Positions 8,150-63,316 of a stretch of DNA of 64,000 bases are shown piece after piece. Every line of letters begins with the position of its first letter. The stretch's first letter is position 1. This DNA comes from a virus, in IMG/VR virus record IMGVR_UViG_3300022225_001767. One strand, written 5' to 3'. Position numbers and translations under genes: made by a program. The notes under the pieces are model-generated. The model searched no databases and was not told where the DNA came from. It saw only the letters and a list, made by a program, of their open reading frames with translations.

Positions 8150-8821
8150 ATGCAAATTACATTTTCGCTTCGCAACAACAATCTTATTATCGACAGCTCA
8201 CAGAGCTTAGATGACTTTTCCGCCGCATTCGCTGACCTTACAAAGCTGAAAAAGACGCACGTCAAAAGTACGATAAGCAAAACCTTAGGTTTCAGCCATA
8301 TCAAGGCGCTTGAGAGCGCACTTACACCATACATTAGCGCCCCAGATGTTCGCCTTGCCGATAAAACGATAAAGGGGCTTCAAGATCTTTACTGGTGGCT
8401 TGATGATAACATCGACATGAACACTGAGATGTATTTTGATAGCAATGGTGAGGTTGACTCAAAAGCGTTGCAGGACATGTTATCGCCTTTGTTTGATATG
8501 ATGCGACAACAACAGGCATCAGGTAAACCTATCACGAACCGTGCAGAGGAAATCACCGCTAAGCGCGATGGTATACTTTCCGACATGACGAAACATGCCC
8601 TTCAGCATGCGGATGTCGACAACGAAGCGCAGCTAGAGCAAAAACATTATTACGCGGTTCAAGATGACGTTGAAGCACTCAACCGAAAATTATTTAACCA
8701 TGATGATTATGGGAAAGCCTTGGCGCTACTTGAACGTGAGGGCATGCAAGATTTTGCGAACCTTCTTGCCGAGATGACAGAAACGAAAACGGCAGAGGAT
8801 CACATCGCGCATACACTGTAG
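8150..8821 (+). CDS. Helical-motif family protein (unit B); paralog of 61637-62251
   Basis: KSTISKTLGFSHIKAL motif; IIDSSQSLDDFS matches IIDSKHSLDQFS. Confidence 0.8.
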   Translation: MQITFSLRNNNLIIDSSQSLDDFSAAFADLTKLKKTHVKSTISKTLGFSHIKALESALTPYISAPDVRLADKTIKGLQDLYWWLDDNIDMNTEMYFDSNGEVDSKALQDMLSPLFDMMRQQQASGKPITNRAEEITAKRDGILSDMTKHALQHADVDNEAQLEQKHYYAVQDDVEALNRKLFNHDDYGKALALLEREGMQDFANLLAEMTETKTAEDHIAHTL

Positions 8822-8844
8822 CACCATGCTCTCGCCAATCACTT

Positions 8845-8869
8845 AAAGCCCGTACATACGGGCTTTTTT
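8845..8869 (+). terminator. intrinsic terminator between units B and C
   Basis: AAAGCCCGTA-ca-TACGGGCTTTTTT. Confidence 0.75.
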
Positions 8870-8946
8870 ATTTTTGGTTATTTTCAATAAATGTATATTT
8901 TTTCTGATGGATATTGACATCACTCACAGGCGGTGAGATAATCACC

Positions 8947-9174
8947 ATACCTGCTCGACCCTACACTGCGGTGCGTGGTAACAGCAGAGGGAGGCTCCAG
9001 ACCTTCGTCGCATCTCAGGTGCAACAGTACACAATACCGTCGCACTCATGGCTAATACTGGCAACGTCTTCACTTAATAAAGACAACACACCCCTTTTTC
9101 GACATAACGTTACTTGACGAGTCGCAATTGGAACGAGATGCACAATGATGATTACGACTCACTTGGAGAATGAT
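8947..9174 (+). ncRNA. Pseudoknotted leader RNA, unit C
   Basis: GCATCTC 9010-9016 pairs GAGATGC 9135-9141 in loop GGAACGAGATGC of stem GAGTCG 9119-9124/CGACTC 9155-9160; promoter TTGACA-N17-GATAAT at 8914. Confidence 0.7.
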
Positions 9175-9825
9175 ATGTCTACACCTGTTACTATCTTGGG
9201 CGCTGATCGCGCCACGTTAATGAACAACACCCGACGCGCACTGGAAGGATTCCAAAAAGGACGTCCTGTTACGCGTGATGCATTGGTGAGAAAAGCGCTG
9301 GCCACCATCTTAGGGCAAGATAATGAGCACCTCCCTACCGCGGACTTCTCAATTAATAATGCCTCACTGGAGACACGCTTGCGTAACGCTATGGCGCCAC
9401 TTACGTTTTTGCAAGACTGGGGCACTGGGGATGACGAGTACCTTGATTTAAACTTTGAAGCGCGCGCGTGGGATGCCAATGCAGAGAAGGACGACATTAC
9501 CGTCGACTACCGCATCAGCTTCCATATTCCGGGTAAATACGCCTATTTCATTATCGGTAAAAATTATGGCAGTGGGATGGTCGGTGCCATTGAAATCCCG
9601 CTCTCACACCTACCTTACGCGCCGATGTTATTGCTTGAAGGCAGCCGTGATGCGCAGTGGCTTGACGAGTCAGAGATTTTTGTTGGCATCGAAAAGATGT
9701 TGGATGTTTACCATGCTATTTGCGCCGATCCATTGCTAAAAGAAGTTTTTATCGATAACCGCCCTGCACTTTCTCTTAAATCCGCGAAAGATGCAGTCAC
9801 AACATCGCACAGCGAGGTGCGTTGA
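9175..9825 (+). CDS. Helical-motif family protein (unit C)
   Basis: RKALATILGQDNEHL motif; GGAG RBS. Confidence 0.8.
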   Translation: MSTPVTILGADRATLMNNTRRALEGFQKGRPVTRDALVRKALATILGQDNEHLPTADFSINNASLETRLRNAMAPLTFLQDWGTGDDEYLDLNFEARAWDANAEKDDITVDYRISFHIPGKYAYFIIGKNYGSGMVGAIEIPLSHLPYAPMLLLEGSRDAQWLDESEIFVGIEKMLDVYHAICADPLLKEVFIDNRPALSLKSAKDAVTTSHSEVR

Positions 9826-9826
9826 T

Positions 9827-10417
9827 ATGAGCAGCATACTGCTTCATGAGAACAACCAAAGATTAGTGTATGACGATGCCACCTTAACGTGGGTGGCACC
9901 GCAAACCCAATACCCACTCATTAACCCTCATTCTCAGCTTCCGGCCATCCCTAGCCCCCGGCATAAGCATGAGATTGTGGGCACATTAACAATTCGGGTT
10001 TATGATACACGCTCACGTAAAGTAGAGCTTTTCCCCTTGGCATTGCGCCAGGGGGTAATACATACGCCAAAACGTTGCTATGTCGGTGCAAGCTTAACGC
10101 TTGACGCTGTCAATAAGATGGGAATGTGGCTAAAATCCTGCGGAATTAACCATGAGTGGTCGCATCGCTATGTGACAAACATCATCCAAGCACTCAATCA
10201 CGGCGATGTGCTATGTGGCGAAATTGAAGCCATCTACCGCAAAAAGAAACCCAATCCATCTGGAAAGCTTTATTTTGACCGCGCCGCCTACGAGTCTCGC
10301 CCGACCATTTTGACGTGGGGGGTTAACGTTGACCCACCACGCCAACGCGCATGCTCACCCTTGTTGACGTTGGCGGTAAACAACAGTAAAACCATTGACA
10401 ACGCTCACACCTTGTGA
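9827..10417 (+). CDS. hypothetical protein
   Basis: GAGG RBS, starts immediately after the upstream stop. Confidence 0.65.
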   Translation: MSSILLHENNQRLVYDDATLTWVAPQTQYPLINPHSQLPAIPSPRHKHEIVGTLTIRVYDTRSRKVELFPLALRQGVIHTPKRCYVGASLTLDAVNKMGMWLKSCGINHEWSHRYVTNIIQALNHGDVLCGEIEAIYRKKKPNPSGKLYFDRAAYESRPTILTWGVNVDPPRQRACSPLLTLAVNNSKTIDNAHTL

Positions 10418-10456
10418 GACACTGACATTGTCAACACAACGGTTAGAGAACCCATT

Positions 10457-11092: not shown

Positions 11093-11111
11093 CTTTGATA
11101 AGGATTAAACC

Positions 11112-11414
11112 ATGCCTACACTAAAGGACTGCATCATTACTGCGCCCAGCACAGGCGCGTGTGAAATTGATATAGAAAAAGCTAAAAAGTACTTCGATAA
11201 ACACTGTTTCATCTCAAAGTGGCAAGGCGAGAAAGGCGATGAATATCGACTGGTGAGAACCAAAGCCAATGCGCGAAATTTCAATCACGTCAAGGTCACC
11301 ATCAGCGAAGAAGATGCATTAACCATCATCGACGCCCTTAACATGTACGAAATCACAAGCCGCATGTTTAACCGCGGCTCAACATTCCACGCGCCACAGG
11401 ACTCAGATTTTTAG
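11112..11414 (+). CDS. hypothetical protein
   Basis: AAGGA RBS. Confidence 0.7.
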   Translation: MPTLKDCIITAPSTGACEIDIEKAKKYFDKHCFISKWQGEKGDEYRLVRTKANARNFNHVKVTISEEDALTIIDALNMYEITSRMFNRGSTFHAPQDSDF

Positions 11415-11474
11415 ATATTGACTTTGCACACAGCATGTGAGACACTAATATTGTCAACACATCAGGGAAAATCA

Positions 11475-13831: not shown

Positions 13832-13951
13832 CGAAGGTTAAGTTATTGATTTATAAGGTTTTTTTTGAGGGGTGGGTTCCCACCCACTACCTGCCCCTCA
13901 CCCTCCCCGCTACGCCAAACAATAATACCAAAAACACAAAGAGGCACCGCT

Positions 13952-15208
13952 ATGCGACGCGTATTACGTTTAATTGTTCCCACTCTCGTTTTCTCTTTTG
14001 TTACACTCACCAATATTGCACTCGCGTCACCGACTACAGAAGAAAGACTTGTCGCCAAATACAACAGCGCAATGTTCCAAATATCGACATCACTAAAAGG
14101 CGCAAGCGGCATCACCTCATACGGCACAGGCTTTCTCATAAAAAACAATCTCCTTGTTACCAATTATCACGTTATTGATGATTATTTTCTTGCGCAGGAA
14201 GACTATAAAATTATTGTTACGCGAGGCACCGACAAAACCATCTATCCGGTATCGCTTCACACCGTCGATATGCTCAACGACCTCGCCATATTTACGGTAG
14301 AGACAAATACAGACGACATTACGCCTTTTACATTAGGGGAAAGTAACGTTCAACAGGGCGCAACCGTATACAGCATGGGCAACCCAAAAAGCTCTGGTTT
14401 TATGATTGTGCCTGGCGTATACAACGGTGTACGAGAGGCTTCCAAAAAGGAACTCCTTAATTTTACTGGCTCGCTTAATAGCGGCATGAGCGGAGGACCT
14501 GTTATCGACAGTAACGAAATACTCGTAGGTGTCAATGTGTCCTCTTCTGGCAATGGCATGGGATACGCGGTCAATGCAAAACACCTTAAGGCGCTAGTGG
14601 CTCACGTCAACAGCAACCCGCCCAATACAGATAGCCTTTCTGTTGCAGAAGAACAGCTTCATGCGTGGTCATCGCTTATCACCGATATGCTGAAAGGTAA
14701 ATTCAGCGCGCCGTCAAATGCACTAGAAGTAGACTCGCCGTTCGTGAAATGCAACAGCGATAAAGTTGATGATGACGCTATCTCTGTCCATATAAAACAT
14801 TGCTATACCTTGGAGGATTTGGGACTTGGCGGTAGACACACATTAGAGGGTTTTTCAGTATTTTCTTACCACGTAGAAGACAGCGAACCAAGCTTTATAC
14901 GGCGTATAATGGGGTTAACCCCTCTGTTTCTCTTGTCTCAATTATCCCCTCTCATTCAGGACGATGACGCTTCTCTCTACAGCAGTTCATCCTGTGAGTT
15001 TATCGTTACCACATTAACAAACAATCGTCGGGCAAAGATCAGAAACTGCGCAGTACGTGGCAACACATCGCCGTCCTATTGGATACATCGCGTCACCATT
15101 TCTTACGCCATCGACAGCAACAATGCGATCGCCAATGACATTACATTTCAAGGGCTATCCCCCATGGCGAGTGCCACATTGCTTGCTGACATTATAGAGG
15201 AGCTTTAA
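13952..15208 (+). CDS. exported trypsin-like (S1) serine protease
   Basis: Signal-like N-terminus; VTNYHV (His), DLAI (Asp), SGMSGGP (Ser). Confidence 0.85.
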   Translation: MRRVLRLIVPTLVFSFVTLTNIALASPTTEERLVAKYNSAMFQISTSLKGASGITSYGTGFLIKNNLLVTNYHVIDDYFLAQEDYKIIVTRGTDKTIYPVSLHTVDMLNDLAIFTVETNTDDITPFTLGESNVQQGATVYSMGNPKSSGFMIVPGVYNGVREASKKELLNFTGSLNSGMSGGPVIDSNEILVGVNVSSSGNGMGYAVNAKHLKALVAHVNSNPPNTDSLSVAEEQLHAWSSLITDMLKGKFSAPSNALEVDSPFVKCNSDKVDDDAISVHIKHCYTLEDLGLGGRHTLEGFSVFSYHVEDSEPSFIRRIMGLTPLFLLSQLSPLIQDDDASLYSSSSCEFIVTTLTNNRRAKIRNCAVRGNTSPSYWIHRVTISYAIDSNNAIANDITFQGLSPMASATLLADIIEEL

Positions 15209-18780: not shown

Positions 18781-18965
18781 TGCTTCACAGTGATGTGCGG
18801 CAAACACAGGTGAGAACCTAGCAGCCTTCCGGCGCCATGCGCTTGCAAATATCATTAACGATGAACATTACGCTATCATTTAGCAATCCACGTTTACATT
18901 ATGAACTGTAGCGTGTCATCACCCCGGGAAGGCAAGAAAAAGACACGCAATACGGAGAATGATGT
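18781..18965 (+). ncRNA. Pseudoknotted leader RNA, unit D
   Basis: GCCTTCC 18824-18830 pairs GGAAGGC 18927-18933 in loop of stem GCGTGTC 18911-18917/GACACGC 18942-18948; TTGACT at 18747. Confidence 0.7.
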
Positions 18966-19778
18966 ATGAACACACCTAAGTTATTTTTTACCACGCTTGT
19001 TAATGCTCTGCGCACTAAAGATGATGCAAAGGCATTGCGTCAGCACATGAATGACGTGAACGCCAAGCACTTCGGAAACACCCAAAAACCCGCCAAATTG
19101 TTCGCTTATTTCGCTGACATGATGGGCACATCAAACGCAAACAAGCTATCAGCGTTACTTGATGAAAAAGTCAGCGACAATTTTGACGATCCTGCAACCT
19201 TCATCAGCACACTACTTAGCCCCATGATGTCGCGTGTTGCGCGTGTTGGCGAAGTGGGTAGAGTGATTTCAGGTAGCGACCCAGCCCCTAGCTGGTTTAT
19301 GAACCTTCCATTATTAACCATAAAAACGACGGGATACACCGACGATCCTGAAAAAACCACCTGCTATCTTGGCGTTATTATCAACGTTGAATACTCTAGG
19401 GCCTTCGGTAAACTTCTCGTTGATGCGACATTAAAACTGTTTGATGATGCTGATCTCTCTGCCTGTGATATTGGGTACGAAGTAGAACTTGAAACGCAAA
19501 ATGACATCACCGAATACTTTAGCAGCGAGATGGAAATGGGATTTGGTCAAGCGACAAGCATCTCACTTCATGAGGGCGGCAAATTATTCTCCTCGTTAAC
19601 TGGATTAACAACCTCTACGTTTGATGAAGGTGACGACCCCATTATTCCCTTTCTCGTCAGCGGGATTGGCCATGAGCTCATTCGAACATTGTCGCCGGTG
19701 TGCGATTTAACGTTAAATTGCGGTGACATCGCATGCCAACAGATGTTTTTAGCATCCGGTAAAATAGAAAAACGTTAA
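18966..19778 (+). CDS. Helical-motif family protein (unit D)
   Basis: LFAYFADMMGTSNANKLSALL motif; GGAG RBS. Confidence 0.78.
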   Translation: MNTPKLFFTTLVNALRTKDDAKALRQHMNDVNAKHFGNTQKPAKLFAYFADMMGTSNANKLSALLDEKVSDNFDDPATFISTLLSPMMSRVARVGEVGRVISGSDPAPSWFMNLPLLTIKTTGYTDDPEKTTCYLGVIINVEYSRAFGKLLVDATLKLFDDADLSACDIGYEVELETQNDITEYFSSEMEMGFGQATSISLHEGGKLFSSLTGLTTSTFDEGDDPIIPFLVSGIGHELIRTLSPVCDLTLNCGDIACQQMFLASGKIEKR

Positions 19779-20718: not shown

Positions 20719-20887
20719 TGTCGCCGCTAATAGCGACTGCCTCCTCCGCCCTAACGGGTAAGGCCCATATTAGCAAGTTACACCGACCTGATTTTTATTG
20801 AAACTACTGTCACCAGCGGTTCTCCAATAACAGGCGCAAGGGAGGAACGAGCTGTTAAACTGAACCGAAAACGGAAACAGTACAATC
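20719..20887 (+). ncRNA. Pseudoknotted leader RNA, unit E
   Basis: TCCTCC 20742-20747 pairs GGAGGA 20841-20846 in loop of nested stems CGGTTC/GAACCG and TAACAG/CTGTTA; TTGCAT-N17-TAATAT at 20685. Confidence 0.65.
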
Positions 20888-21817
20888 ATGAAATTCACTA
20901 CTTCATTTATCAATGCGGCCCTTACACGTCTACGTAACAGCATGACGCTTCATACCTCACGCGATCGTGTTTCCGCTGCCATTAAGCAGATGGCCTACAA
21001 AGCCAATGATGAGGACAAAACACAACTCGATACGCTACGCCATCAACTCGATACGCTTACGCTTGAAGATGCACCGATGGACAGAAAGCGCGCGCAAGAA
21101 ACATTGGCAACGATCCTTACCGGTCAGAATTATGCCCTTTTGAAGCGCGATGCAGATGCGCCACTCTCGCCCACGCACAATGATTTTAATGCGGCGAAGG
21201 GTATGTTGAACAACGCATTGAGCATGATCAATGATATGCAACATTATGAGCGAGAATCTGAACGCGCTTACAATAAGCTACTTAAATTGTTAACCGACAA
21301 TGCAGGTGATGCAGCTGCTGTAAAAGGAGATGCGCTTTCACCATGGACGAGCAATGCAGCCCTGTGCGCTTACTACCGCGACAAACTCATTGAACACAAA
21401 TCGTCGTTTAAATTCCGCATTAAAGACCTAGACGGCCCCATGTTTAGCCGTTCAGGCAGTGATGCCTATGAGGTTAAGGTTTCTTTCCTTTTTGGTGGCC
21501 ACAGCATCAATGTTCTTTGGGAAGTTAAAAACAATGAGTATGCTGAGTTTGACGATGAGTTTGTTTCTGTTGAACTTGATGGCGACGACATTGAATCTGT
21601 CACATCCAGTGAACCGTGCAACAATGGGCATTATGTTTTTGACTTATTCAACGACATAATGTCAGATTACTTACGCGACAACGTTCGGTTAGGTGACGAT
21701 GACGTGTGCTCTCCTGATGAAGCATCACGTGACGCCGAGAGGGAACTCGCTTTGCAAGCGTTGACAATGGGTCACCGTTGGTTCGAGAAGCAAAAAAAGA
21801 GAGAAAAACACTCGTGA
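20888..21817 (+). CDS. Helical-motif family protein (unit E)
   Basis: RAQETLATILTGQNYALLK motif. Confidence 0.78.
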   Translation: MKFTTSFINAALTRLRNSMTLHTSRDRVSAAIKQMAYKANDEDKTQLDTLRHQLDTLTLEDAPMDRKRAQETLATILTGQNYALLKRDADAPLSPTHNDFNAAKGMLNNALSMINDMQHYERESERAYNKLLKLLTDNAGDAAAVKGDALSPWTSNAALCAYYRDKLIEHKSSFKFRIKDLDGPMFSRSGSDAYEVKVSFLFGGHSINVLWEVKNNEYAEFDDEFVSVELDGDDIESVTSSEPCNNGHYVFDLFNDIMSDYLRDNVRLGDDDVCSPDEASRDAERELALQALTMGHRWFEKQKKREKHS

Positions 21818-26039: not shown

Positions 26040-26238
26040 CAAGTTTCGAGAGCGTTACGACGCTATGACCGAAATGTGTGTTGCAGCACACGCCGCCTAC
26101 CGCCCTTTGGGTGTTTGTTTTATACAGACCGGCCACTCTTGCACCATTGAATGCACACTTACGTTTATAATCGTTTACCGCGTGAGGCTTCAAGGTTAAT
26201 TGGTAGGGCTTGAACATTCACATTCGGAGAACGCTATT
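26040..26238 (+). ncRNA. Pseudoknotted leader RNA, unit F
   Basis: CCTACC 26096-26101 pairs GGTAGG 26202-26207 in loop of TTCAAG/CTTGAA stem; two 5' hairpins; TTGACA at 26007. Confidence 0.68.
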
Positions 26239-26865
26239 ATGAGCAACCCATTACGCCACCTTGCCACCGCCATTGTTACTGCTTGTCAAACTAAAGACAA
26301 CGCAAAACACGTCAAACAGAGCACCGTCCTTGATGTTCTTACTAAGCATGAAGGCTACAGAAGTATACAGGCGCGAGACAACGCAACTGCTACGCGTAAC
26401 GATGACAAACCACTGCCATCGGACGTTGTCGCATTGCGAGGGCTTCTTTACGCCAACTATCCACATTCTGACTTACTTCCCATAGAACTTGGTGAAGCCA
26501 TCACATTTAAAGGCTCCCTCGTTTCGCACCCTGATTGGGGATGCGATGCACCCTTCGCCGTCATGTGGGATTTACTCAGTAATGAACTACATGCAGCGGT
26601 CGATGAGCTTGAGCGCTGGAACCGCTTGTGCGACCGCCTTGAAGACGTTATTGAGTCTGGCACTGACGCTATAAACGAAGTGTTGATTGCTTTCCCACCA
26701 CGTATTGCGCAGTTTCTTCACGCAGAGTTTGATGAAGTGACCGACGACACCATGTTGCCTGTTAAACAGGCTGCGGAGAAATATCGCGCCCTAGAGCGCT
26801 TTCAATCTGATGTTGAGAGTGTCACGGATGCGCTTCGCAATGCCCGTTCGGCACAAGACAGATAA
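26239..26865 (+). CDS. Helical-motif family protein (unit F)
   Basis: VKQSTVLDVLTKHEGYRSIQA motif; GGAG RBS. Confidence 0.78.
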   Translation: MSNPLRHLATAIVTACQTKDNAKHVKQSTVLDVLTKHEGYRSIQARDNATATRNDDKPLPSDVVALRGLLYANYPHSDLLPIELGEAITFKGSLVSHPDWGCDAPFAVMWDLLSNELHAAVDELERWNRLCDRLEDVIESGTDAINEVLIAFPPRIAQFLHAEFDEVTDDTMLPVKQAAEKYRALERFQSDVESVTDALRNARSAQDR

Positions 26866-28918: not shown

Positions 28919-28942
28919 TACGAGCAATATGTCGGTTTCTTA

Positions 28943-28993
28943 TTGACAACACTCTCAGTTTTTGAGATACTAATCCTGTCAACACAACAGGAG
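28943..28993 (+). promoter_or_regulatory. Box-type promoter cassette (closest to consensus)
   Basis: TTGACAacactctcagtttttgaGATACTaatcctGTCAACACAACAGGAG. Confidence 0.85.
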
Positions 28994-28999
28994 AGAGAC

Positions 29000-29269
29000 A
29001 TGGCTTTATCTGAACAAGCAATGATCAGCAAAATCAATAAGGCGCTACCAGAAGCGAACGCCGTACCTATGGCTGAATTTTACGGCGACCCGTCACGTAA
29101 AGGCATCTGGCTACGAGGCAGCGAAGAGTTTGCATCAGATGGTTTACCTATCTTTAACGCAGGCACTATCGAGGACGCTCTGCACCCTACACTACAAGCT
29201 ATCGTCGATGACAATGGCTGGTACGGCGAACCCTATGACGGTGGCACGCTAATGCTATACAAGGTGTAG
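29000..29269 (+). CDS. hypothetical protein
   Basis: ATG after cassette. Confidence 0.72.
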   Translation: MALSEQAMISKINKALPEANAVPMAEFYGDPSRKGIWLRGSEEFASDGLPIFNAGTIEDALHPTLQAIVDDNGWYGEPYDGGTLMLYKV

Positions 29270-38305: not shown

Positions 38306-39067
38306 TTAGCGCGCGGCGCTCTTACGTCTTTTTAGACCGGCTAAAGACAACAACCCCAATCCCGCCATGACAGCGCCTGGCGCGCTTACATTGGCTAACC
38401 GGGCATTAGCATTATTCTCCACCAGGGACATATCTTCTTGCGTGGTCAATGTGGCGCCACCGTCAGCAACCAGGTAAACGCCCCGACTTGCTGCTGTTGC
38501 GTCTAACGTATATGACTCATGCGTGTAATCAATATAGGAATACGAATAATACCGCGTTCGCTGCGTTGTCATCGGATCTTTGAACCAACGTACACCCGCC
38601 ATATTCACATTGCCTTCATTAACATACATGCCGTAGGAGTAATAGTCATGTTCTACATTCCATGACGAACCCGATATGCGCTTGTACGTCCACCCGAACT
38701 GAGCACTAAAATCGTCAACAATTTCTTGTACTGCTGGTGAGCTTTCGCGGTTGTTGTAATAATAGCGAGATTGACTGGTGTCATATCCCGTTAAATCAGT
38801 CACAATATCCTGTACTTCAAGTGCCGTTGCAAAACGCCACCCGTCAAACAAACCGCCCTCGCCGAGCTCTGCACTCACCTGGTTAATTGACATCCCTTTT
38901 GTCTGGTCAAGCTTTAACCACTCTATCCCGGTGTCATAGTCAAGAAAAGCAAGCCCGTCACCTTCTGCCTTCCAGTCTAGCGGAATATAGTTTGCAGCGT
39001 TTGCACCACTTACCATTGCAATGGTTATTGCAAAAGCAGCAACACCTTTTTTGAAAAAATTTTTCAT
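38306..39067 (-). CDS. PEP-CTERM-like sorting-domain surface protein
   Basis: Signal peptide ending ANA; C-terminal NVSAP, TM segment, KRRK. Confidence 0.78.
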   Translation of the reverse strand: MKNFFKKGVAAFAITIAMVSGANAANYIPLDWKAEGDGLAFLDYDTGIEWLKLDQTKGMSINQVSAELGEGGLFDGWRFATALEVQDIVTDLTGYDTSQSRYYYNNRESSPAVQEIVDDFSAQFGWTYKRISGSSWNVEHDYYSYGMYVNEGNVNMAGVRWFKDPMTTQRTRYYSYSYIDYTHESYTLDATAASRGVYLVADGGATLTTQEDMSLVENNANARLANVSAPGAVMAGLGLLSLAGLKRRKSAAR

Positions 39068-39326
39068 ACTTCTTCCCCACTTTACATTTGTATGTTTATC
39101 CTTAAATCGCCCCACTCCATGCAATGCTTATGCCGCCTTTTTCACGCATTTAAAAGCGCACCCGCAGTCGTTCAGCGCCTTGTATATTCACACATTTACA
39201 CTCCTTATGGATATACACCCACCAGTGTAAAACAACCTGACACTTGCAGCACCATAAAACAAACCATTGACACCCCACACAGACTGTGAGATACTAACAT
39301 TGTCAACACAACAAGAGAACTTCGCT

Positions 39327-41606: not shown

Positions 41607-41641
41607 GTTGACTCTAGTTTGTTCGTTTGATATATTTAAGT

Positions 41642-41803
41642 TGCTCCGATGGAGTGTAGGCCATACGACCTACGCCGCCCCTTTGGCCAAAATCGTAAGC
41701 AACATCTTTACCTATTCACCTGTGGTACGTTACATACAACGACATAACACCTTGGGTGCGATTGGGAACGGGGCACAAGCGCACCATTAATGAGGAATAC
41801 CTT
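41642..41803 (+). ncRNA. Pseudoknotted leader RNA, unit G
   Basis: GCCCC 41677-41681 pairs GGGGC 41770-41774 in loop GGAACGGGGCA of stem GGTGCG/CGCACC; TTGACT at 41608. Confidence 0.72.
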
Positions 41804-42775
41804 ATGTCATTACGTCAACAGATCGTGTCTAAATCACACATGCAGGGGCTACGAGACTCACTGCGAGAATCATTCTCCCCGAATAAGCTTGCTGTCCTGC
41901 TATCACACACCATTAATGATCCTGCTGTCCAGGCTGCAATGAGCAAAGCCATCGGTTCAAAAGGCGAGAGCAAGCTCGACGTGCGCGTCGCCGACGACAT
42001 CACAGCCACCCTGCTTGGCTTTAATAACACCCATGAAATGTTCGCGCATTACAATAGTGTGACGCATGTTCGTCGCTGGGAGTTTTTACACAAAAACAAA
42101 CACGAAGACTATGCACCCGACTATTTGGTTGAAGTTGGCGTCCACTTTTCTGTACTTGATGCCATCGCCCTAGAGGACAACGATTTCGAACATGATCGCA
42201 TTGATGAACGTTTTGAGCTCCTTGCTATGGATGAGGCCTACCCTGCCAGTGATGAAGATCTCGCAACCTGCATCACGTCAAAAAGCGATGCGCCTGCGGT
42301 TGTGTTATCGATGTCAAGAGATGGCCTGTTTGATGACATTAAAATGTCAGACAGCGCAATGGCGTCACAGGCATTCACCTTGCTCGAATCAATGATTTTA
42401 ACCACAAGCGCCGGCATCCCCTTTGCACTGGATAGCGACGAGGTAATGAAACGCTACACGCTCTCTGATATGGCGATATTCTCGGTTTCCCAGGATGTCG
42501 TTGATAGCGAGCTAGACCTCCTGACCGTCTTTCTTGAAGAGGGGGTGCTGGAGGGGACAATCACCGTTCCACTACCAGCCGCATTGCTACCACTCGCGCC
42601 ACTTTCAATCAGAGACGGCATGCATATCTATACGTTACTGGATGGGTACACACTGCATTTTTCTCCGGCATCGATGATGTTCATCTTGGCGCACAACGAC
42701 GCACCCTGCTTTGGCGGCGGCATACACCTCCATGAGGACGACCTTCGACGTCAGGCATTTACTGGCTTGGCGTGA
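41804..42775 (+). CDS. Helical-motif family protein (unit G)
   Basis: VADDITATLLGFNNTHEMFAHY; paralog of 1-439; GAGGA RBS. Confidence 0.8.
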   Translation: MSLRQQIVSKSHMQGLRDSLRESFSPNKLAVLLSHTINDPAVQAAMSKAIGSKGESKLDVRVADDITATLLGFNNTHEMFAHYNSVTHVRRWEFLHKNKHEDYAPDYLVEVGVHFSVLDAIALEDNDFEHDRIDERFELLAMDEAYPASDEDLATCITSKSDAPAVVLSMSRDGLFDDIKMSDSAMASQAFTLLESMILTTSAGIPFALDSDEVMKRYTLSDMAIFSVSQDVVDSELDLLTVFLEEGVLEGTITVPLPAALLPLAPLSIRDGMHIYTLLDGYTLHFSPASMMFILAHNDAPCFGGGIHLHEDDLRRQAFTGLA

Positions 42776-44166
42776 ACTACCCAGCGACATCGCTTCGCTC
42801 TGATCACTGGGCTTCTACAGTCTAGCTTTGAAGCTAGGCCGCTTCTTTTTTCTCAGATCCAACAGCAAACTTCGATAGCTCGAAGGCTTTCGCTTTACTA
42901 GCTGATTTCTGCTGAGATATGGGGATTACCCTTGCGACGATCCCAGCCGCAATTAAGTCTGTCTCACCTGTTTTTGCTATGCTTTTAGCCGCTGAGAAGT
43001 CGCGGTTTTGATACGTTCCGCAAGCAGTACAGGTGAAATATCTATCGCTCAATGTTAAAACATGGCGTTGGCCGCATTCTGAACAAATCCCTGTGGATTT
43101 TTCAAAGCGACCAATTTCGTGATAGAGCTTACCTTCCAACTCAGCCTTGTATTTCGAGAGCTGGGTAATTAAGCCCATCACATTGTCAGCCACCATACTG
43201 CCGTTGAACTTTTGCATCGCTTTCACATTCAAATCCTCAAACACCAGAATATCAGTTTCATTGGCTATCTGTCGTGACACTTGATGTGCAAAGTCGAGTC
43301 TTTGCCGTGAGATTTTGCCGTGAAGCTTATTGATGCGTTGCTTGGTCTTTTGCCAGCGATTAGACCCTTTCTTTCGCCTTGCAAGCTGGCGTTGCAAGTG
43401 GCTTAATTTCTCTTTTGATTGTTTTAAGAACTTCGGGTTGTTGGCAGTAAAGCCATTTGAGCCCACTACCGTTTGCTTAGAGTTAATATCAAAACCTGTG
43501 ATGCTTTCCAGTAGTTTTTTAGCGGCTTTACATTCCACTTCTTGCGTAATGCTGCATTCCCATTTTCCATGACGATACTGGACAGTAACGGTCTTAATTT
43601 GGCTCACTAAGTCGCGGTGTAAGATGATGGGTATTTTACCCACTTTTGGGATGCTAATAGAGTCATTTTCAATGCGTATGCAATTGGAATTGTTCACCGC
43701 TCGAAAGCTGTCATTGTGAAGCTTCTTTCGCTTATAAGAGACTTTATGTTTTGGAAAACGTTGCAACCGACCTTTTGAAAAGGCGTTTTTTAGTGCTGTT
43801 TCCAGATCTCTTGCGACTTGCTGGGCTGCTGCTGAGTCAAACGCCTTTACCCAAGCAAACTCATCAAAAGACTTTAGTTCTTTGAGCAATGAAGCCATAT
43901 CCCTGTAAAACAAGAACGTCTTATCGTACTCGTATCGACGCATTGTTTCAGACAACAGCAGGTTCCAAATGCCACGGGCTGTTGCACCAAACTCAATGAG
44001 TCTAGCCTCCTGCTCCAGCGTTGGCTTAAGCCTGTAATTGTATCTGAGCGTCTTTTTCATATACTGTATAGATTACTGTATATAGTAGAGCTGTCAACCT
44101 GAATTTACCGATTCATCCCCGCGACATCACTTCGTTCTGATCACGGGGTTTTCTCGGCAACATTAG
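42772..44166 (-). mobile_element. IS200/IS605-family tnpB-only element
   Basis: Related subterminal hairpins at about 42780-42812 and 44116-44148; right end TTCAC; TTTAT target 5' of left end; no tnpA. Confidence 0.85.
42834..44060 (-). CDS. tnpB: RNA-guided endonuclease TnpB
   Basis: N-terminal YRLKPT helix-turn-helix-type segment, RuvC GFDIN / VFEDLNV / RD, Zn finger CSECG...CTACG. Confidence 0.93.
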   Translation of the reverse strand: MKKTLRYNYRLKPTLEQEARLIEFGATARGIWNLLLSETMRRYEYDKTFLFYRDMASLLKELKSFDEFAWVKAFDSAAAQQVARDLETALKNAFSKGRLQRFPKHKVSYKRKKLHNDSFRAVNNSNCIRIENDSISIPKVGKIPIILHRDLVSQIKTVTVQYRHGKWECSITQEVECKAAKKLLESITGFDINSKQTVVGSNGFTANNPKFLKQSKEKLSHLQRQLARRKKGSNRWQKTKQRINKLHGKISRQRLDFAHQVSRQIANETDILVFEDLNVKAMQKFNGSMVADNVMGLITQLSKYKAELEGKLYHEIGRFEKSTGICSECGQRHVLTLSDRYFTCTACGTYQNRDFSAAKSIAKTGETDLIAAGIVARVIPISQQKSASKAKAFELSKFAVGSEKKEAA

Positions 44167-44526
44167 ATAAACGCACACGGCGCTTGCGTGGCACGTTCAC
44201 TGTCACGCAATACGTAAACAACAAGGAAATATATAATGGTTAACTTTGATTTGGGTCCTAAAGGGGCCGAAGCAAGATGACAGCAAATGCAGAGACTTGT
44301 TTTGGGTCAATGCCCAAGGTGAATGGTGGTCTGAAAACGACCAAGAGTGGGTGCCAGCAGAGCGCTATGACGTAACGTGGCTGCAAACGATTGCCGCTAA
44401 GTACGCGGCATAATAAATTAAGTTTTGACTTTCGCTGTTTTTTTAGGAAAACATGAAAAAAACGTTGACAATAAACACAGGTTTTGCGATACTAATCCTG
44501 TCAACACAACAACGGAGTAACACTTT

Positions 44527-49469: not shown

Positions 49470-51641
49470 CTATTCATTCTCTTGTGGCAAGGCCGCTTGC
49501 TCACGTGCCGCCTCACACGCGTCTTTAATGGCGTTAAACACCTCGTACGCCACGCTATTAAGCTCTGGCGGTGTGTCACTATTGGAAAACCCTTTAGCTT
49601 GCGCCAATCGTCCCGAACTGCGTTCAAATTGATAGGTGAACGTTTCATCAGACCTATTACCTGTAGACAGGGCGAAAATCACCGCTGAGCCATCCGTACA
49701 ACGGTCAGCATAGTAGCGTGTGCCTACACAGTGATGTTGAGCACGACCTAATGCACGGAGGGCTTTTGTGTCCTCCGGCAGTGTTAGTGTGACGTGTGAC
49801 GGGAGGCTTTCAGTGATAGTGTCAAGCTGCGCAATAGCATCGGCCTGATAGAAACGCGCATTGACGGTACTGATTGAGAAGTCACGTTGCTGCTTGTTGC
49901 TTAAGTAGCTATGAAATGCTTCACCGTAGTCTTTCTTAGACGCAAGCCATTTACGCACCAACGCACACTGTTTGGCGCTTTCATCAGGGCAATCTCGTGC
50001 AATGAGCGTTGCTAACATACGAAACACATCTCGCGCTTCGGTAATGGCGTTATCCATCACAACGGCTACCATTTCATCGTGTGACAAAAAAGCCAAACAG
50101 GTGCGTAGTGACGGCGCATCAATGGCAAGCCCTGCGCGCTTCTGCGCCTGTTTACCTGTGCCTAATGCACTATTAATCTGCGCAAGAAACTGAATGTATC
50201 CGTGACGGTCGAGTTTGCCACGTGAATTGGTAAACACGCTCTGCAATGCGCTTAGTGCGGTCAAGGACTCCGCCTCTTGACTGTCGAACAAGAACTGCAC
50301 CTCTTGAGGGTGTTTTGAACCAATGAGCATTTTGGTCATCGCCTTGGGCGAATTAACACTCTTGAAGTCAAACAGATCATACCCGTAATCATTATGCAAG
50401 ATGAGGTAGTTCTTTAATGACGTAAGCAACGCGAACGCGGGGCTTTCATTGAAGAGTGTTTTATCATAATCCTTATTAGAACTCATAATGCTCTCACGTA
50501 CACGGTAGAGACACTTAAACGTGCTGTCTGAGACATTGGGGTGCATCGCGACACGCATTTGGATAGTGTGATCGGGGTCGTACGCCAGCATATCCAAGAT
50601 GCCCGACGGGACATTACCACTGCTTAGCAGCTTGCGTACTAATAAGGAGTCAACAGGCTCGCGCTCGATGAATTGTGAAACGACCTCCGGTGACAATGTA
50701 TCTACGCGGTCAAGAATGGCGTAGCACAACGCGTCACAGCTGCCCTGGTATTCCAACAGCATCGCTTCCGCTTGCGCATCTGAGAAATTAAGCCGGTGAA
50801 AACCTTCATCAATACCGTATTGAGAGGCGTCGCACTTAACCAGCTCAATAAAATCGGATTGCTTCATGTCAGCGTTTTTAAATGCGGCGTCGTACACATC
50901 CGATACATACCTTGCTCGACAGTCTGTATTGGCATTGTTTTGCACATACGCTAAAACTTCGCGAAATTGCTCCATCGTATGTTCGTGATTATCTAGCAAC
51001 GCAATGCGTATCCGGCATGTGCTATTAGGCTCTATTTCCAGCGCTAACAGGCGATTAAACAACGAACGTGAACATGCGGCGTTTTCAGCCACTTTGATGT
51101 ATATGTTGGTATGGAGCGTCTTATCTTCAACGCGTGGAACAGCAGCAACGATATCGCTCAATACAGCATCACATGACGCAGCTTGCCCCATTTCAGCAAG
51201 CAGCGATGCATTATTCATTGCAATAATAGCATCAGCACGTTCCCACGGGAATGCGCGATGATTGACTATGTTCTGCGCCATGAAACTTACATTTCCGTCA
51301 GAATACTCACCATCAATAACGCGATTGAGAAGACGGTTATACAGTGCCTCTGGCACTCGCTCGCTGTACAGTGAAAGCACATCCAGCGCAGGATTAAGCG
51401 CCAGCAATTCGCTGACCTCATTGTCGCTAAATGCGGGGTGATTGAGCATCTGTGCCATACTCTCAATACTTTTAGCATTGGCGTAGTACCCCGCCACAAA
51501 TCTCGGTGTCTCGCTTTCTAATACATCCCGCATGATACACTTGGGGAAATTAGGTGCACTCAGTGCGACCTGCATCTTTCGCGAGCAGCAGCTATTAAAC
51601 ATTTTTTTTAGTTGCGATGGACTGTAATAACGGTGAGTCAT
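49470..51641 (-). CDS. helical-repeat protein with C-terminal PcfJ-like domain
   Basis: ALNP/VAENA/VAMHPN repeats; LRALGRAQHHCVG...YADRC...QAKGFSN. Confidence 0.68.
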   Translation of the reverse strand: MTHRYYSPSQLKKMFNSCCSRKMQVALSAPNFPKCIMRDVLESETPRFVAGYYANAKSIESMAQMLNHPAFSDNEVSELLALNPALDVLSLYSERVPEALYNRLLNRVIDGEYSDGNVSFMAQNIVNHRAFPWERADAIIAMNNASLLAEMGQAASCDAVLSDIVAAVPRVEDKTLHTNIYIKVAENAACSRSLFNRLLALEIEPNSTCRIRIALLDNHEHTMEQFREVLAYVQNNANTDCRARYVSDVYDAAFKNADMKQSDFIELVKCDASQYGIDEGFHRLNFSDAQAEAMLLEYQGSCDALCYAILDRVDTLSPEVVSQFIEREPVDSLLVRKLLSSGNVPSGILDMLAYDPDHTIQMRVAMHPNVSDSTFKCLYRVRESIMSSNKDYDKTLFNESPAFALLTSLKNYLILHNDYGYDLFDFKSVNSPKAMTKMLIGSKHPQEVQFLFDSQEAESLTALSALQSVFTNSRGKLDRHGYIQFLAQINSALGTGKQAQKRAGLAIDAPSLRTCLAFLSHDEMVAVVMDNAITEARDVFRMLATLIARDCPDESAKQCALVRKWLASKKDYGEAFHSYLSNKQQRDFSISTVNARFYQADAIAQLDTITESLPSHVTLTLPEDTKALRALGRAQHHCVGTRYYADRCTDGSAVIFALSTGNRSDETFTYQFERSSGRLAQAKGFSNSDTPPELNSVAYEVFNAIKDACEAAREQAALPQENE

Positions 51642-55869: not shown

Positions 55870-55895
55870 GCTTAATTAAAACAAGGAGTACGCTT

Positions 55896-59703: not shown

Positions 59704-59793
59704 GGCGAATCACCTATTAACACATCGTTTTATGTTGACTTTTTTGCTCAAATTTGAGACAATTTAATCGTCAACACAACCAGAGAGAAAACC

Positions 59794-60279
59794 ATGAGCA
59801 AAACCTTTAATCTTTTCGCGCCCGTTGTATCTGATTTGAACACCGTTGTTCAGCAGAACAAAAATACTGTATCTATCGCTTCACTTGTCAGTATTGCGGC
59901 AATCGCAGCCTTTCAAGCCACCATCAATATGGGCAAGCAGGATGTGATCACGAAGGTAGGCAAGCTTGACCCTGACTTCATCTTAACAGAAACTCGTCGC
60001 CCATTGTCGTTTTATGAACAAGCAGTGGTGTGTGCGGCTGAAGCGACCATCATCGAAACCCTGTCACTTCACAGCATCACGCCAGATGAAAAAATTCGTG
60101 ATATCATCGTAGAGCAATGGATAAACGAAGGGGCGTTTTTGACGGCTTCTCGCAGCACCGCAGGGTCAATGATGACAGAGGCAGAGCGTGCCGCTGCACG
60201 AGGCCGATCTGAAGAAGAAATTCTTGCCGAATTAGCTTCCGCAGAGGGCGGATGTGCGGGTGGTGCATGCACCATATAG
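59794..60279 (+). CDS. hypothetical protein with C-terminal GCAGGACTI Cys pair
   Basis: ATG after cassette; paralog of 12653-13144. Confidence 0.75.
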   Translation: MSKTFNLFAPVVSDLNTVVQQNKNTVSIASLVSIAAIAAFQATINMGKQDVITKVGKLDPDFILTETRRPLSFYEQAVVCAAEATIIETLSLHSITPDEKIRDIIVEQWINEGAFLTASRSTAGSMMTEAERAAARGRSEEEILAELASAEGGCAGGACTI

Positions 60280-60385
60280 GGTGCACTTTCGCCACTTCTC
60301 ACTTTTAGGTACGTTGCACGAAACGGCAGCCTGTTATGACACGCTGCCAACATCACCACGTTATAATCACCAACAAGGACACACT

Positions 60386-61105
60386 ATGCGTACGTCATTT
60401 GTCACCTTGCTGTTTTCTGTCTTTCTGTCTACATCGGCTTTCGCTGTTGATGTCGTAAAGAAAAGCAGTAGCGGTATTTGCCACGACACCAGCAGCAGCT
60501 GGTATGAAAAAACGAAGAACTTCACAGCCTATGCCACCATGGAGGCCTGTATTGATTCTGGTGGACGCGCACCGCGCAATTACACCGGCACCAAACCGAA
60601 AGACAACCTGCCGCAAGGCGAACGCTATGATCGCGACGCATGGGAACACTGGGTGGATGACGATAATGATTGTCAGAACACGCGCGCTGAGGTCTTGATT
60701 GCTCACTCAACGACCCCCGTTCTTTACAATAACATTATCAAACGATGTTATGTGACACGGGGGAAGTGGTATGGCGTCTACTCCGGCAAATTCTATTATG
60801 ACGACGACGATCTTGATATTGACCACATTGTGCCCCTTGCTTATGCGCATGCGCACGGTGGTGATAAATGGAGCGCCGCTCAAAAGCGTGCTTTTGCCAA
60901 CGATATGGACAACCTTCTCCCTGTTAGCGCATCATTAAACAGGCAGAAATCGGCAAAAGGGCCGACTGATTGGATGCCGCCCTATCAACCTTACCGCTGT
61001 GAGTATTTGGGTGAGTTTGACGGCATTATGAAAAAGTACTCCCTTGAGTATTTCCCTCACGAACTGCGCGTTATCAACAAAATGAAAAGCGCCTGCGGTA
61101 TGTAA
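60386..61105 (+). CDS. secreted HNH-family endonuclease (DUF1524-like)
   Basis: Signal peptide; YDRDAWEHW, CQNTRAEVL, LDIDHIVPL, NLLPVSASLNRQKS. Confidence 0.85.
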   Translation: MRTSFVTLLFSVFLSTSAFAVDVVKKSSSGICHDTSSSWYEKTKNFTAYATMEACIDSGGRAPRNYTGTKPKDNLPQGERYDRDAWEHWVDDDNDCQNTRAEVLIAHSTTPVLYNNIIKRCYVTRGKWYGVYSGKFYYDDDDLDIDHIVPLAYAHAHGGDKWSAAQKRAFANDMDNLLPVSASLNRQKSAKGPTDWMPPYQPYRCEYLGEFDGIMKKYSLEYFPHELRVINKMKSACGM

Positions 61106-61131
61106 ACACCAAGACGTTTATTGCATGTACT

Positions 61132-61159
61132 AAAAAAGCGCCTCATTTGGCGCTTTTTT
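61132..61159. terminator. bidirectional intrinsic terminator
   Basis: AAAAAAGCGCC-tcattt-GGCGCTTTTTT. Confidence 0.75.
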
Positions 61160-61180
61160 GATTTGTGACCCTTATCGGCA

Positions 61181-61561
61181 TTAGCACAGCAGGTCGACAA
61201 CAACGGCCAATCGCCGCTTCTGTTCATTTAATGCTTCCGCAAGAGTAACCAGTTCATCGTCGGCATCCGCCATTTGAGCCAGCATTACGATGCGCTTTGT
61301 GTGCTCTGCAATACTATGCGACAATTCCGACTTCATTGTTTCGAGGTCGGCCTTTGATGGTGTAGACGCATTAACCTTTGAAGTGAGCGCCTGCATATCA
61401 ACACCTTTTAACGTTCTGCCGATATGAATGTTACCCGACAGTGGGTTTAAGGCATTGCTAAAATAGAAACCATGCTTATTCTTTCTGAGCGTTAAATGCA
61501 TGGCTTTTTCTTTTGTGATAAGCGCACTTAAATGCACTTGTGTTACCGTGACTTCAGACAT
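61181..61561 (-). CDS. hypothetical protein
   Basis: AAGGAG RBS. Confidence 0.7.
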   Translation of the reverse strand: MSEVTVTQVHLSALITKEKAMHLTLRKNKHGFYFSNALNPLSGNIHIGRTLKGVDMQALTSKVNASTPSKADLETMKSELSHSIAEHTKRIVMLAQMADADDELVTLAEALNEQKRRLAVVVDLLC

Positions 61562-61636
61562 TGCTTTTCTCCTTGGTGGTGAAGTTAAATTATACCACCA
61601 TATGACCTATTTTCCAATTGCTTTTGCCCTTCTTAT

Positions 61637-62251
61637 TTAGCGCGACGTTAATACGTCATACTCTAAACTGTTCCTCACAATACTGCCCATGATCTCAGCA
61701 ACATCAACCAGGCCTTGCTGCTCAAGTGTCACCAGGGCTTCTTTTAACAAGGGGTGGTTGGCCAGCTCTCGCGCATCATCACTTAACGCCTCTGCGGTAG
61801 ACTCGTGCGCGTCAGCGGGCACATCGCTCATATCATCCACTTGCTGTGCGTCCAATATGTTTGATGACACTTGTGATTTCCACATATTTATTTTTTGCTC
61901 GCATGCTTTCAATGCATCATTTGGCGCATCTTCATCGCTATGCTTCTGTTGAAATACATGCGCTTTAGGGGGGAGGGCGGCCAGCACGTCTGACGCCCTA
62001 ACCTCGTGTGTATCGTCAAGTAACGCCCCCGCTTTCGCTTGGATTTTTAGCCAGTTGTACAGGCCATCAATAGCCGCAGAGGGAGCAATCACCGGTGCCG
62101 GTGTTAATTGATTGGTTAGTATCGCAATATCAGCACAGTTTTGCCCTTTTGCGATGGCGCTTCGCAGTCGCGTGGCGGGCATCTTCGTGTGCTGCGCAGT
62201 GTCTTTTGAAAATTGGTCGAGTGAATGTTTGCTATCAATAATAATAAACAC
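61637..62251 (-). CDS. Helical-motif family protein (unit H); paralog of 8150-8821
   Basis: IIDSKHSLDQFS...RLRSAIAKGQNCADIAIL; GLYNWL; EALVTLEQQGL. Confidence 0.8.
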   Translation of the reverse strand: MFIIIDSKHSLDQFSKDTAQHTKMPATRLRSAIAKGQNCADIAILTNQLTPAPVIAPSAAIDGLYNWLKIQAKAGALLDDTHEVRASDVLAALPPKAHVFQQKHSDEDAPNDALKACEQKINMWKSQVSSNILDAQQVDDMSDVPADAHESTAEALSDDARELANHPLLKEALVTLEQQGLVDVAEIMGSIVRNSLEYDVLTSR

Positions 62252-62467
62252 AATAATATCCTCTTTGTCGTCGGTATAAGGTGATGAGTTCGGCCATTGC
62301 CCAACAACCGACTAAAAAGTCATATTGTGGTTGATGCAAATAGTGGTTGATGCAGTTTACCTTACTCAGGCAGACCATAAGACAGGTCGGCGAGTGGCCG
62401 TAGAGGGATGCCGTCCCAAGCACCGGCTTATCAGATGCATAACATGCAAATGGGCAGCGCTATGGTG
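62252..62467 (-). ncRNA. Pseudoknotted leader RNA, unit H
   Basis: CGGCCA (62395-62400) pairs UGGCCG (62291-62296) in loop of stem GUCGGU/ACCGAC; TTGACA-N17-TATTAT with -35 at 62494-62499. Confidence 0.7.
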
Positions 62468-62507
62468 AAAATAATATCAACATCAACCTGTGCTGTCAAC
62501 ATAAAGC

Positions 62508-62536
62508 AAAAGGGCTGCAAGCGCAGCCCTTTTTTT
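62508..62536. terminator. intrinsic terminator between units I and H
   Basis: AAAAGGGCTGC-aagc-GCAGCCCTTTTTTT. Confidence 0.72.
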
Positions 62537-62545
62537 GATCACCCA

Positions 62546-63316
62546 CTAACTCGAAAGCGTAACTAAAAAACATCCTTCTGGAATATCATCACGTGGTACC
62601 ACAGCAAGGCCTGATGTCGTTTGGATGTCATGAAAACAAGCCAAAAACCCAGTCTTATTACGCAGCGTTTCCATAACATCTTCGCTGCTTCCATCGAAAC
62701 CAACAGGGACATGAATGGCGACGACAGAGTAAACGCCCTGAATGCGGTCGATCACATGCTCTTCAAATTGGTCAATAGCGCCGATGTTTACTTTATCTGC
62801 ACCCATAAGTGTGGTTGAACTTGCATCTGGCATCACCCACTCTTCATTGGTGTTTTCATTAATATAAAGCGTAAAGCGCTTCGTATCACTCGTTTCAATA
62901 ATATCTTGCATGGCGTATTCTGCCATGCAGTGAACGGTTACATCACCCAATAAACTCTGCTTGAATTGCTGTTCGCCATTCGGGAAGCCGATAAGTTTTA
63001 AGGTAATATCGCGGAGGCGGTCTCGCCCTTTACTTTTATCCGTATTTATCGTGATATCGAGTGTGTCAGCAAGGATGCGCTTGACGTGCTCCTCAGTGAC
63101 ACAAAGTGACGCTTCGTCTTTTACCTCTGCCATAGGGTTGTTGACATAAGTGTTAACTTCACCTTTTACGACAGGGTACGCCAAGCATGAGCAAAGGGGG
63201 CATTCGCAGGTTGTGAAAGACTGACCGCTATCGAAGCGCTCACTTGCACGTCTTACAGCATTAAATTCGCTTTCATTTTGCGTAAAGTTACAGTTATCGC
63301 AGCGATAATACATCAT
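62546..63316 (-). CDS. Helical-motif family protein with N-terminal Zn-ribbon (unit I)
   Basis: GAGGA RBS before MMYYRCDNC...CPLC; RLRDITLKLIGFPNGEQQF motif. Confidence 0.78.
   Translation of the reverse strand: MMYYRCDNCNFTQNESEFNAVRRASERFDSGQSFTTCECPLCSCLAYPVVKGEVNTYVNNPMAEVKDEASLCVTEEHVKRILADTLDITINTDKSKGRDRLRDITLKLIGFPNGEQQFKQSLLGDVTVHCMAEYAMQDIIETSDTKRFTLYINENTNEEWVMPDASSTTLMGADKVNIGAIDQFEEHVIDRIQGVYSVVAIHVPVGFDGSSEDVMETLRNKTGFLACFHDIQTTSGLAVVPRDDIPEGCFLVTLSS

Follow-up and report, generated by a model that had tools for sequence, protein, structure and literature searches.

The subject of this analysis is a set of nine genes in a stretch of 64,000 nucleotides (nt) from the virus record IMGVR_UViG_3300022225_001767 (hereafter the window, i.e., the whole stretch analyzed), in which the original prediction had described a short helical motif shared by genes with long leaders and joined to unrelated C-terminal domains. 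The N-terminal domain of two of these genes, 41804 and 2-439(-), together termed family B, is a real domain family that is unnamed in databases. For the set as a whole, the account to which we lean, with somewhat less than even confidence, is that the nine gene products share one type of small helical module at the front, joined to unrelated acidic bodies, module and leader acting together. Each gene forms a separate unit with an upstream promoter, one open reading frame (ORF) and a terminator hairpin, and all nine motif strings were confirmed by position, as listed below (coordinates in the window, strand, feature; protein lengths in amino acids, aa).

2..439, minus strand: family-B gene, truncated at its C-terminus by the window boundary (the complete twin, P0008, has 340 aa)
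191-232, minus strand: motif LAADMLGFHNTNEM in family-B gene 2-439
437..598, minus strand: family-B leader RNA of gene 2-439, -35 box from 629, aligned with eight other family-B leaders
7950..8149, plus strand: leader (about 200 nt) of gene 8150, promoter TTGACT-16-TATCCT from 7916
8150..8821, plus strand: family-A gene, 223 aa, motif ISKTLGFSHIKAL at 8273-8311
8949..9144, plus strand: leader (about 196 nt) of gene 9145, promoter TTGACA-17-GATAAT from 8914
9145..9825, plus strand: gene, 226 aa, motif LATILGQDNEHL at 9298-9333
18782..18965, plus strand: leader (about 184 nt) of gene 18966, weaker promoter (by-eye placement, from about 18747)
18966..19778, plus strand: gene, 270 aa, motif FADMMGTSNANKL at 19110-19148
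20720..20887, plus strand: leader (about 168 nt) of gene 20888, weak promoter TTGCAT-17-TAATAT (by-eye placement, from about 20685)
20888..21817, plus strand: gene, 309 aa, motif LATILTGQNYALL at 21104-21142
26041..26238, plus strand: leader (about 198 nt) of gene 26239, promoter TTGACA-16-TATTAT from 26007
26239..26865, plus strand: gene, 208 aa, from ATG 26239 within ORF 26200-26865, motif LTKHEGYRSIQA at 26338-26373
41639..41803, plus strand: family-B leader RNA of gene 41804, promoter TTGACT-17-TATATT from 41608
41804..42775, plus strand: family-B gene, 323 aa, motif ITATLLGFNNTHEM at 41999-42040, N-domain at about residues 1-87, then alpha/beta body
61637..62251, minus strand: family-A paralogue, 204 aa, GTG start, motif IAKGQNCADIAIL at 62117-62155, without G-F
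62252..62464, minus strand: leader (about 213 nt) of gene 61637-62251, promoter TTGACA-17-TATTAT from 62499
62546..63400, minus strand: gene of about 284 aa if the start is ATG 63400 (ORF open to 63550), motif ITLKLIGFPNGEQQF at 62963-63007

The family-B domain is helical and N-terminal, with a length of about 85 residues (the ORF start 41756 and the gene start 41804 denote the same gene). A profile of the 41804 family recovered 42 clusters at E <= 1e-3 among 1.84 billion protein representatives, many of which match profile positions 1-80 or 1-135 only, in proteins of 262-460 aa. Moreover, the sequences beyond the N-domain split into 13 BLASTP groups, as expected from the claim of variable C-terminal domains, and a hidden Markov model (HMM) of N-domains from outside members retrieved 41804 at E 1e-39 and 2-439(-) at E 2e-35. 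The AlphaFold2 model of 41804, obtained with the family-B alignment and built from window positions 41801-42772 (hence one extra leading residue), reached a predicted local distance difference test score (pLDDT) of 93.4. In this model, five N-terminal helices (11-24, 27-35, 41-56, 61-71, and 77-86) are followed by an alpha/beta body, and the motif corresponds to the end of helix 61-71, an L-G-F turn, and helix 77-86. Regarding distribution, no match was returned by a scan of IMG/VR with the 41801 protein or by the family-B alignment against species-representative genomes, and a six-frame search of 401 Pseudoalteromonas-family genomes yielded no family-B relative in those searched; likewise, sequence searches of the PDB with the Glyoxalase_8 N-module, family-B, and 18966-family profiles produced nothing below E 0.07. 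On contig L052, a family-B relative (P0038) is flanked by two genes for DNA cytosine methylases on one side and a DndB-like gene on the other.

The motif had been likened to the small domain Glyoxalase_8 (Pfam PF20066), and in the best-sampled family, B, this likeness persisted. Two of the 43 family-B proteins match PF20066 weakly by hmmscan, the best being P0043 (E 0.0057, 17.1 bits, below the curated cut-off of 23.7 bits), whose residues 50-86 align to PF20066 positions 26-61, the motif region; since PF20066 had been singled out beforehand among 24,736 families, this match carries weight. Profile comparison by hhalign of 14 Glyoxalase_8 N-modules with the 43 family-B proteins gave a probability of 72% and P 3.3e-5 over 32 columns, exactly at the motif, a local run extended to 49 columns (P 5.5e-5), and the runs as a whole ranged from 66-72% in probability and from 3e-5 to 6e-5 in P. 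These alignments indicate that family B is probably a distant relative of the PF20066 N-module, the matching parts probably being the last three family-B helices and the N-terminal 50-60 or so PF20066 positions. These matches to PF20066 all stop by about model position 61, leaving the beta-rich positions 70-142 or so unmatched, and the nine proteins have bodies that bear no relation to the PF20066 C-terminal part.

PF20066 itself was found in 41 of 401 Pseudomonadota genomes searched, in a full-length form (positions 1-142, ORFs of 139-299 aa) and in a short form limited to positions 3-65 or so (ORFs of 179-486 aa). The latter is fused to Glyoxalase_7/VOC domains and a ClpX zinc finger and, on plasmids, to Lon substrate-binding domains and pentapeptide repeats; since it occurs alone and with such varied fusions, the front of PF20066 is an independent module, and it behaves just as the original prediction had supposed for the motif. 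On the Agrobacterium plasmid pAtA74a_b (L057, 4202-5023), a PF20066 N-module with a Lon substrate-binding domain lies directly after repC, with an upstream gap of 529 nt, and PF20066 matches at about 4,000-4,460 recur in about 10 other listed Agrobacterium plasmids; a Rhizobium copy with pentapeptide repeats has an upstream gap of 244 nt. A literature search for Glyoxalase_8 or PF20066 found no paper, and a broader one found none that was relevant.

Beyond family B, evidence for the module is graded. The Gly8N HMM, made from the proteobacterial Glyoxalase_8 N-module and including no sequences from this element, ranked 18966 first of 110 window ORFs (E 0.009-0.026), and also first of 194 ORFs, with 2-439(-), 26239, and 8150 close behind; residues 15-68 of 18966 are the best Glyoxalase_8 N-module look-alike of the window. 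When compared with Gly8N by hhalign, 18966 aligned over the whole module (P 2e-4 to 3e-3), followed by 26239 (P 0.009-0.04) and the remaining families (P 0.05-0.65). Against the family-B N-domain, the corresponding values were P 0.004-0.009 for 9145, in register, P 0.006 for 20888, and P 0.05-0.2 for family A, whereas 62546, the weakest member, gave P 0.65 with Gly8N and 0.014 with the B domain. As a set, the nine proteins were placed at the top of the 110 ORFs by two profiles made from outside sequences, Gly8N and the metagenomic family-B N-domain (nine versus remaining ORFs, Mann-Whitney p = 0.001). Fisher-combined hhalign P values of the non-B proteins, judged by an empirical null drawn from 45 further window genes (140 aa or longer), gave p = 2e-4 and < 5e-5, and < 2e-5 for single sequences only; the family alignments behind these comparisons are shallow, with an effective number of sequences (Neff) of 1.4-1.9.

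Taken gene by gene, the module is certain in the two family-B genes, and the evidence for 18966, taken singly, is suggestive. Diverged copies are likely in 18966 and 26239, possible in 8150/61637, 9145, and 20888, and doubtful in 62546. Accordingly graded, the Glyoxalase_8 likeness stands for family B and, less firmly, for 18966, but none of the nine proteins reaches the Pfam cut-off, and five families are supported as a collective, none of them alone.

Conservation within families points to the same part of the proteins. Five families have a relative of about 50% identity in other metagenome contigs, and in these the first 60 residues or so rank at or near the top in conservation. Identity over the first 60 aa is 60-86% in four orthologue pairs, versus 15-66% (mostly 25-50%) further on; since synonymous-codon identity is equal in both parts of the protein, selection on the protein, and not recent exchange, is the cause. 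The 230 nt upstream are also conserved in these four pairs (62-73% identical, versus 55-59% for coding sequence), with leader and coding identities of 73 and 59% for 8150 and its relative on contig L001, and of 69 and 56% for 18966 and 71 and 56% for 26239 with their relatives on contig L054. In the pair formed by 9145 and its relative on contig L055 (51% identical), the N-terminal stretch and the leader are likewise best conserved, with ALVRKALAT.LGQ.N.HLP retained and a similar leader before the L055 gene. Furthermore, the N-terminal 66 aa of the 18966 family are nearly invariant at 49% overall identity, and the 26239 relative (L054:5531-6169) has VLDVLSKDAGFRSIQA at the motif. For 20888, no relatives were retrieved, and a BLASTP comparison of its N-terminus with that of 9145 was uninformative. 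Two further genes, L054:4392-5255 and L049:1683-2660, have upstream gaps of 230-260 nt and helix-Gly-helix N-termini (e.g., LHKFAETFGLTSAEPFVAAL), and may be additional families of the same kind.

The leader of family B can be followed across loci. One leader is common to nine family-B loci, including four where the protein similarity is confined to the N-domain; homologues elsewhere thus keep a covarying upstream RNA even when the tail changes, contrary to the lack of such RNA that was to refute the original prediction. One of these leaders has a G+C content of 31%. RNAalifold predicted three hairpins (P1, P2, and P4), in which 12 of the 19 predicted pairs show compensatory changes, and a segment that follows P2 pairs with the P4 loop, in the 3' hairpin (CCCC with GGGG in 41639-41803). 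This long-range pairing covaries: six loci have GCCCC/GGGGC, and the remaining three have GCACCC/GGGTGC, GCTCTCG/CGAGAGC, and TCTTC/GAAGA. R1, a covariance model made for the leader, matched in the window only 41639-41806 and 437-598(-), both of which were training rows, and scored 123.6 bits on the leader of Tara scaffold L005, which was outside the training set. Searches of Rfam, at the gathering threshold and at E <= 1, returned no family for any leader.

With respect to gene layout, a strong sigma-70-like promoter lies 115-213 nt before the start codon in seven of the nine genes (155-213 nt in six), and the motif was not found in other window ORFs with long upstream gaps. Hence the claim that the motif belongs to leader-bearing genes was right in direction; the promoters of 18966 and 20888 are weaker than those of the other seven. 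For the gene at 62546, ATG 63400 is suggested as the true start because of a strong promoter at 63550. The motif lies at residues 33-85 in eight of the nine proteins, in agreement with the N-terminal position that had been proposed. Whole proteins carry net charges of -11 to -26, and the N-modules are near neutral (-4 to +3).

Several results weigh against extending one module, and one mode of action, to all nine genes. Against the other seven proteins, the family-B N-domain HMM gave E 0.6-3 in a database of 110, i.e., no match; HMMs of families A and B found none of the other five genes, and hhalign of family A with family B returned P 0.19. None of the nine proteins, including their N-terminal 100-120 aa, matched PF20066 by hmmscan at E <= 10, so that the direct check of the Glyoxalase_8 idea came back negative, and Pfam (E <= 10), NCBIfam, PHROGs, and PADLOC contained no family at threshold for any of them. 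The motif as a regular expression is post hoc and without significance: its strict form had 1 match in the window ORFs, and its middle form 8, versus 3.1 expected and a shuffle maximum of 8. In family A the G-F of the motif is unconserved, the paralogue having KGQNCADI, and in 62546 the motif begins at residue 132 or later, behind a Cys-rich stretch, and is hence not N-terminal. The set-level statistics draw on a null of 45 genes only and count two paralogues each for families A and B. As for the leaders, R1 with filters off gave at most 7 bits with the other seven of the window, so that one shared leader class is seen within family B and is unsupported beyond it; moreover, leader and N-domain are adjacent, and their joint inheritance may be plain linkage.

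The by-eye idea that all nine leaders form one RNA family was dropped, R1 having no match to the others; each protein family would therefore have a leader of its own, and a common leader architecture across families is an impression. The Cys-rich N-terminal stretch of 62546-63550 (CDNC..CECPLCSC) has a weak RYYR-CCHC match (E 0.074).

On this evidence, it is possible, although in our view doubtful, that the module exists only in families B and 18966, perhaps also in 26239, and that the motif of 8150/61637, 9145, 20888, and 62546 is a chance helix-Gly-helix pattern. Such a view fits the regular expression, the individual hhalign P values of these families (0.004-0.65), the shallow alignments, the loss of G-F in family A, and the position of the motif in 62546. 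All-versus-all BLASTP and family HMMs joined two pairs only, 8150/61637(-) (27% identity over 199 aa) and 41756/2-439(-) (33% over 121 aa), which qualifies the claim of a shared motif that the outside-profile ranking supports. In family A, the AlphaFold2 model of gene 8150 (pLDDT 68) has a beta-hairpin, helices 20-31 and 35-45, a turn, and helix 51-63; structure searches with it returned generic helical bundles for residues 91-223 only. On the other hand, the set-level enrichment against the 45 length-matched genes persists, the motif-bearing stretch is the best conserved protein part in 8150/L001 and 9145/L055, and all these genes have an unusual layout, with their own promoter, a long conserved leader, and their own terminator.

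If one module is indeed common to the nine genes, as we tentatively prefer, the unit would consist of a promoter, a leader of about 115-215 nt, one ORF, and a terminator, and the motif would be the module core, comprising the end of one helix, the Gly turn, and the start of the next. The module would bind the folded leader of its own gene, or that stretch in DNA form, feeding back on its own synthesis, and the acidic tail would perform a job specific to the unit. Binding of the 5' region as RNA is possible, although we would not wager on it, and binding as DNA is rather improbable. The case for an RNA-binding module is circumstantial, namely that a conserved, covarying leader accompanies the N-domain through changes of tail. 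Because of their acidity and mobile context only, the tails may be anti-defense or DNA-mimic proteins. The full proposal of a new self-contained RNA-protein unit in at least nine copies, with a leader whose covarying long-range pairing, probably between loops, is read by a cognate Glyoxalase_8-like module and a fast-changing acidic tail under a private feedback loop, is unlikely in this complete form.

About equally likely as RNA binding is that the module is a protein-protein handle, which would dock differently tailed proteins on one partner (a protease, a transfer machine, or an element-encoded hub), as effector-associated domains and the constant N-terminal domains of polymorphic toxins do, the leaders being an independent regulatory layer. 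This reading is plausible because the PF20066 N-module is fused to the recognition parts of AAA+ proteases, namely the ClpX zinc finger and the Lon substrate-binding domain, and it is compatible with the fusions to enzymes and pentapeptide repeats. Sub-threshold matches to effector-associated domains (EADs) also point this way (EAD5, E 0.075, 13.3 bits, for 18966; EAD1, E 0.19, for one family-B member), but matches such as that to EAD5 (PF19957) are far below the 27-bit cut-off. Moreover, no hub or partner protein with the module alone was found in the window, and a handle leaves unexplained why a covarying leader is kept with the N-domain across 25-30% protein identity and tail swaps.

The proteins could instead be one-component regulators, with an N-terminal helix-turn-helix (HTH) on operator DNA at their own promoter or leader and a variable C-terminal sensor. 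The turn signature of classic HTH domains is h-A-x-x-h-G-h-x, which the motif shows, and bacterial regulators are most commonly built from an N-terminal binding part and a variable C-terminal one. However, no HTH family was matched in Pfam or NCBIfam, even at E <= 10, the would-be recognition helix (THEMFAHYN) has no basic residues in proteins of very acidic net charge, and the compensatory changes show selection on the leader as RNA. Consequently, we regard such regulators as improbable, clearly more so than a module that reads its leader as RNA.

Concerning the carrier, the window has about 110 ORFs (95 on the plus strand) and a G+C content of 44-49%, and its proteins are present on about 100 metagenome contigs (Tara, JGI, ENA, and Logan, with 1 NCBI record), the longest of 486 kb; it would seem to derive from a giant uncultured marine mobile element of 230-490 kb. 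The Pfam submission covered 19 window ORFs, the ten largest and the nine motif genes, few of which gave family matches; these include a PcfJ-like protein of 723 aa (49470-51641, minus strand), a trypsin-like protease (13865-15208), and a GmrSD_C/HNH nuclease (60254-61105). Just downstream of family-B gene 41804-42775 lies the following feature.

42834-44060, minus strand: IS605-type TnpB

TnpB is absent from the syntenic Tara scaffold L005, and its insertion would therefore be recent. Its relatives, at 83-88% identity, occur in Pseudoalteromonas, Alteromonas, Paraglaciecola, Thalassotalea, and Fluctibacter genomes, and because close relatives sit in those genomes the host probably belongs to the Pseudoalteromonas/Alteromonas/Paraglaciecola/Thalassotalea group. 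A megablast of 12 kb had no match among phages, and among plasmids matched the TnpB insertion only. About 35 genes of the window are preceded by one conserved promoter (TTGACAAC..GAGATACT) and the leader GTCAACACAAC (e.g., at 44456-44523 and 28934-29001), from which the nine motif genes are free. A window protein of 272 aa (38306-39124, minus strand) has three paralogues in contig L003 (2276-2983, 8988-9641, and 20088-20786); the two whose N-termini were inspected have signal-peptide-like ones, and one divergently adjoins a family-B gene.

New here are the family-B sister domain, its confident predicted orphan fold, and its coupling to covarying leaders. The front end of PF20066 is a widespread, plasmid-rich module of unknown function, for which the label "glyoxalase superfamily protein" is misleading, and the window adds to it a sister family, large and unnamed, that comes from giant elements of uncultured marine origin and has a confidently predicted structure without a sequence match among solved ones. 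There is evidence that, in proteins with freely exchanged tails, the strongest constraint falls on the module, and in the window each copy stands behind a conserved mRNA leader, with covariation seen in that of family B. This offers a cheap and concrete hypothesis for an unstudied domain, that the module binds its own leader; if a leader-reading unit is true, the widespread PF20066 N-module would be an unrecognized RNA-binding domain. Furthermore, the element, 230-490 kb in size and present in about 100 ocean metagenome contigs, has in these acidic orphan proteins a set of candidates for cargo or effector genes.

Compared with known systems, the closest likeness is to PF20066 positions 3-65 or so, a three-helix N-terminal module with a basic first helix and A-x-x-h-A-x-x-x-G-[FY]-x-[DN] at the turn, which is likewise joined to C-terminal domains of unrelated kinds, frequently lies on plasmids, and has no known function. 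The nine proteins differ in falling below the Pfam cut-off, in missing the conserved S-H-S and D-W-N residues, in lacking the beta-rich positions 70-142, and in that every copy here has a long structured leader; family B has, in addition, two helices in front. Autoregulatory mRNA leaders bound by their own gene product are known from ribosomal proteins and from phage T4 gp32 and RegA, and the working model here is similar in that one protein family is accompanied by a 5' leader that is folded and conserved; however, binding is only proposed here, the module resembles no known RNA-binding domain, and on one element the layout is repeated, with different leaders, in at least seven protein families. 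A constant N-terminal domain is also known from polymorphic toxins, polyvalent proteins, and EADs, which have in common with the present genes one small conserved domain with many unrelated tails in mobile elements, but here no toxin, immunity, or NTPase partner is nearby and the units are monocistronic and dispersed. Finally, TetR-type one-component transcription factors differ from the nine proteins, which are acidic, match no such sequence family, and offer no basic residues in the corresponding recognition helix.

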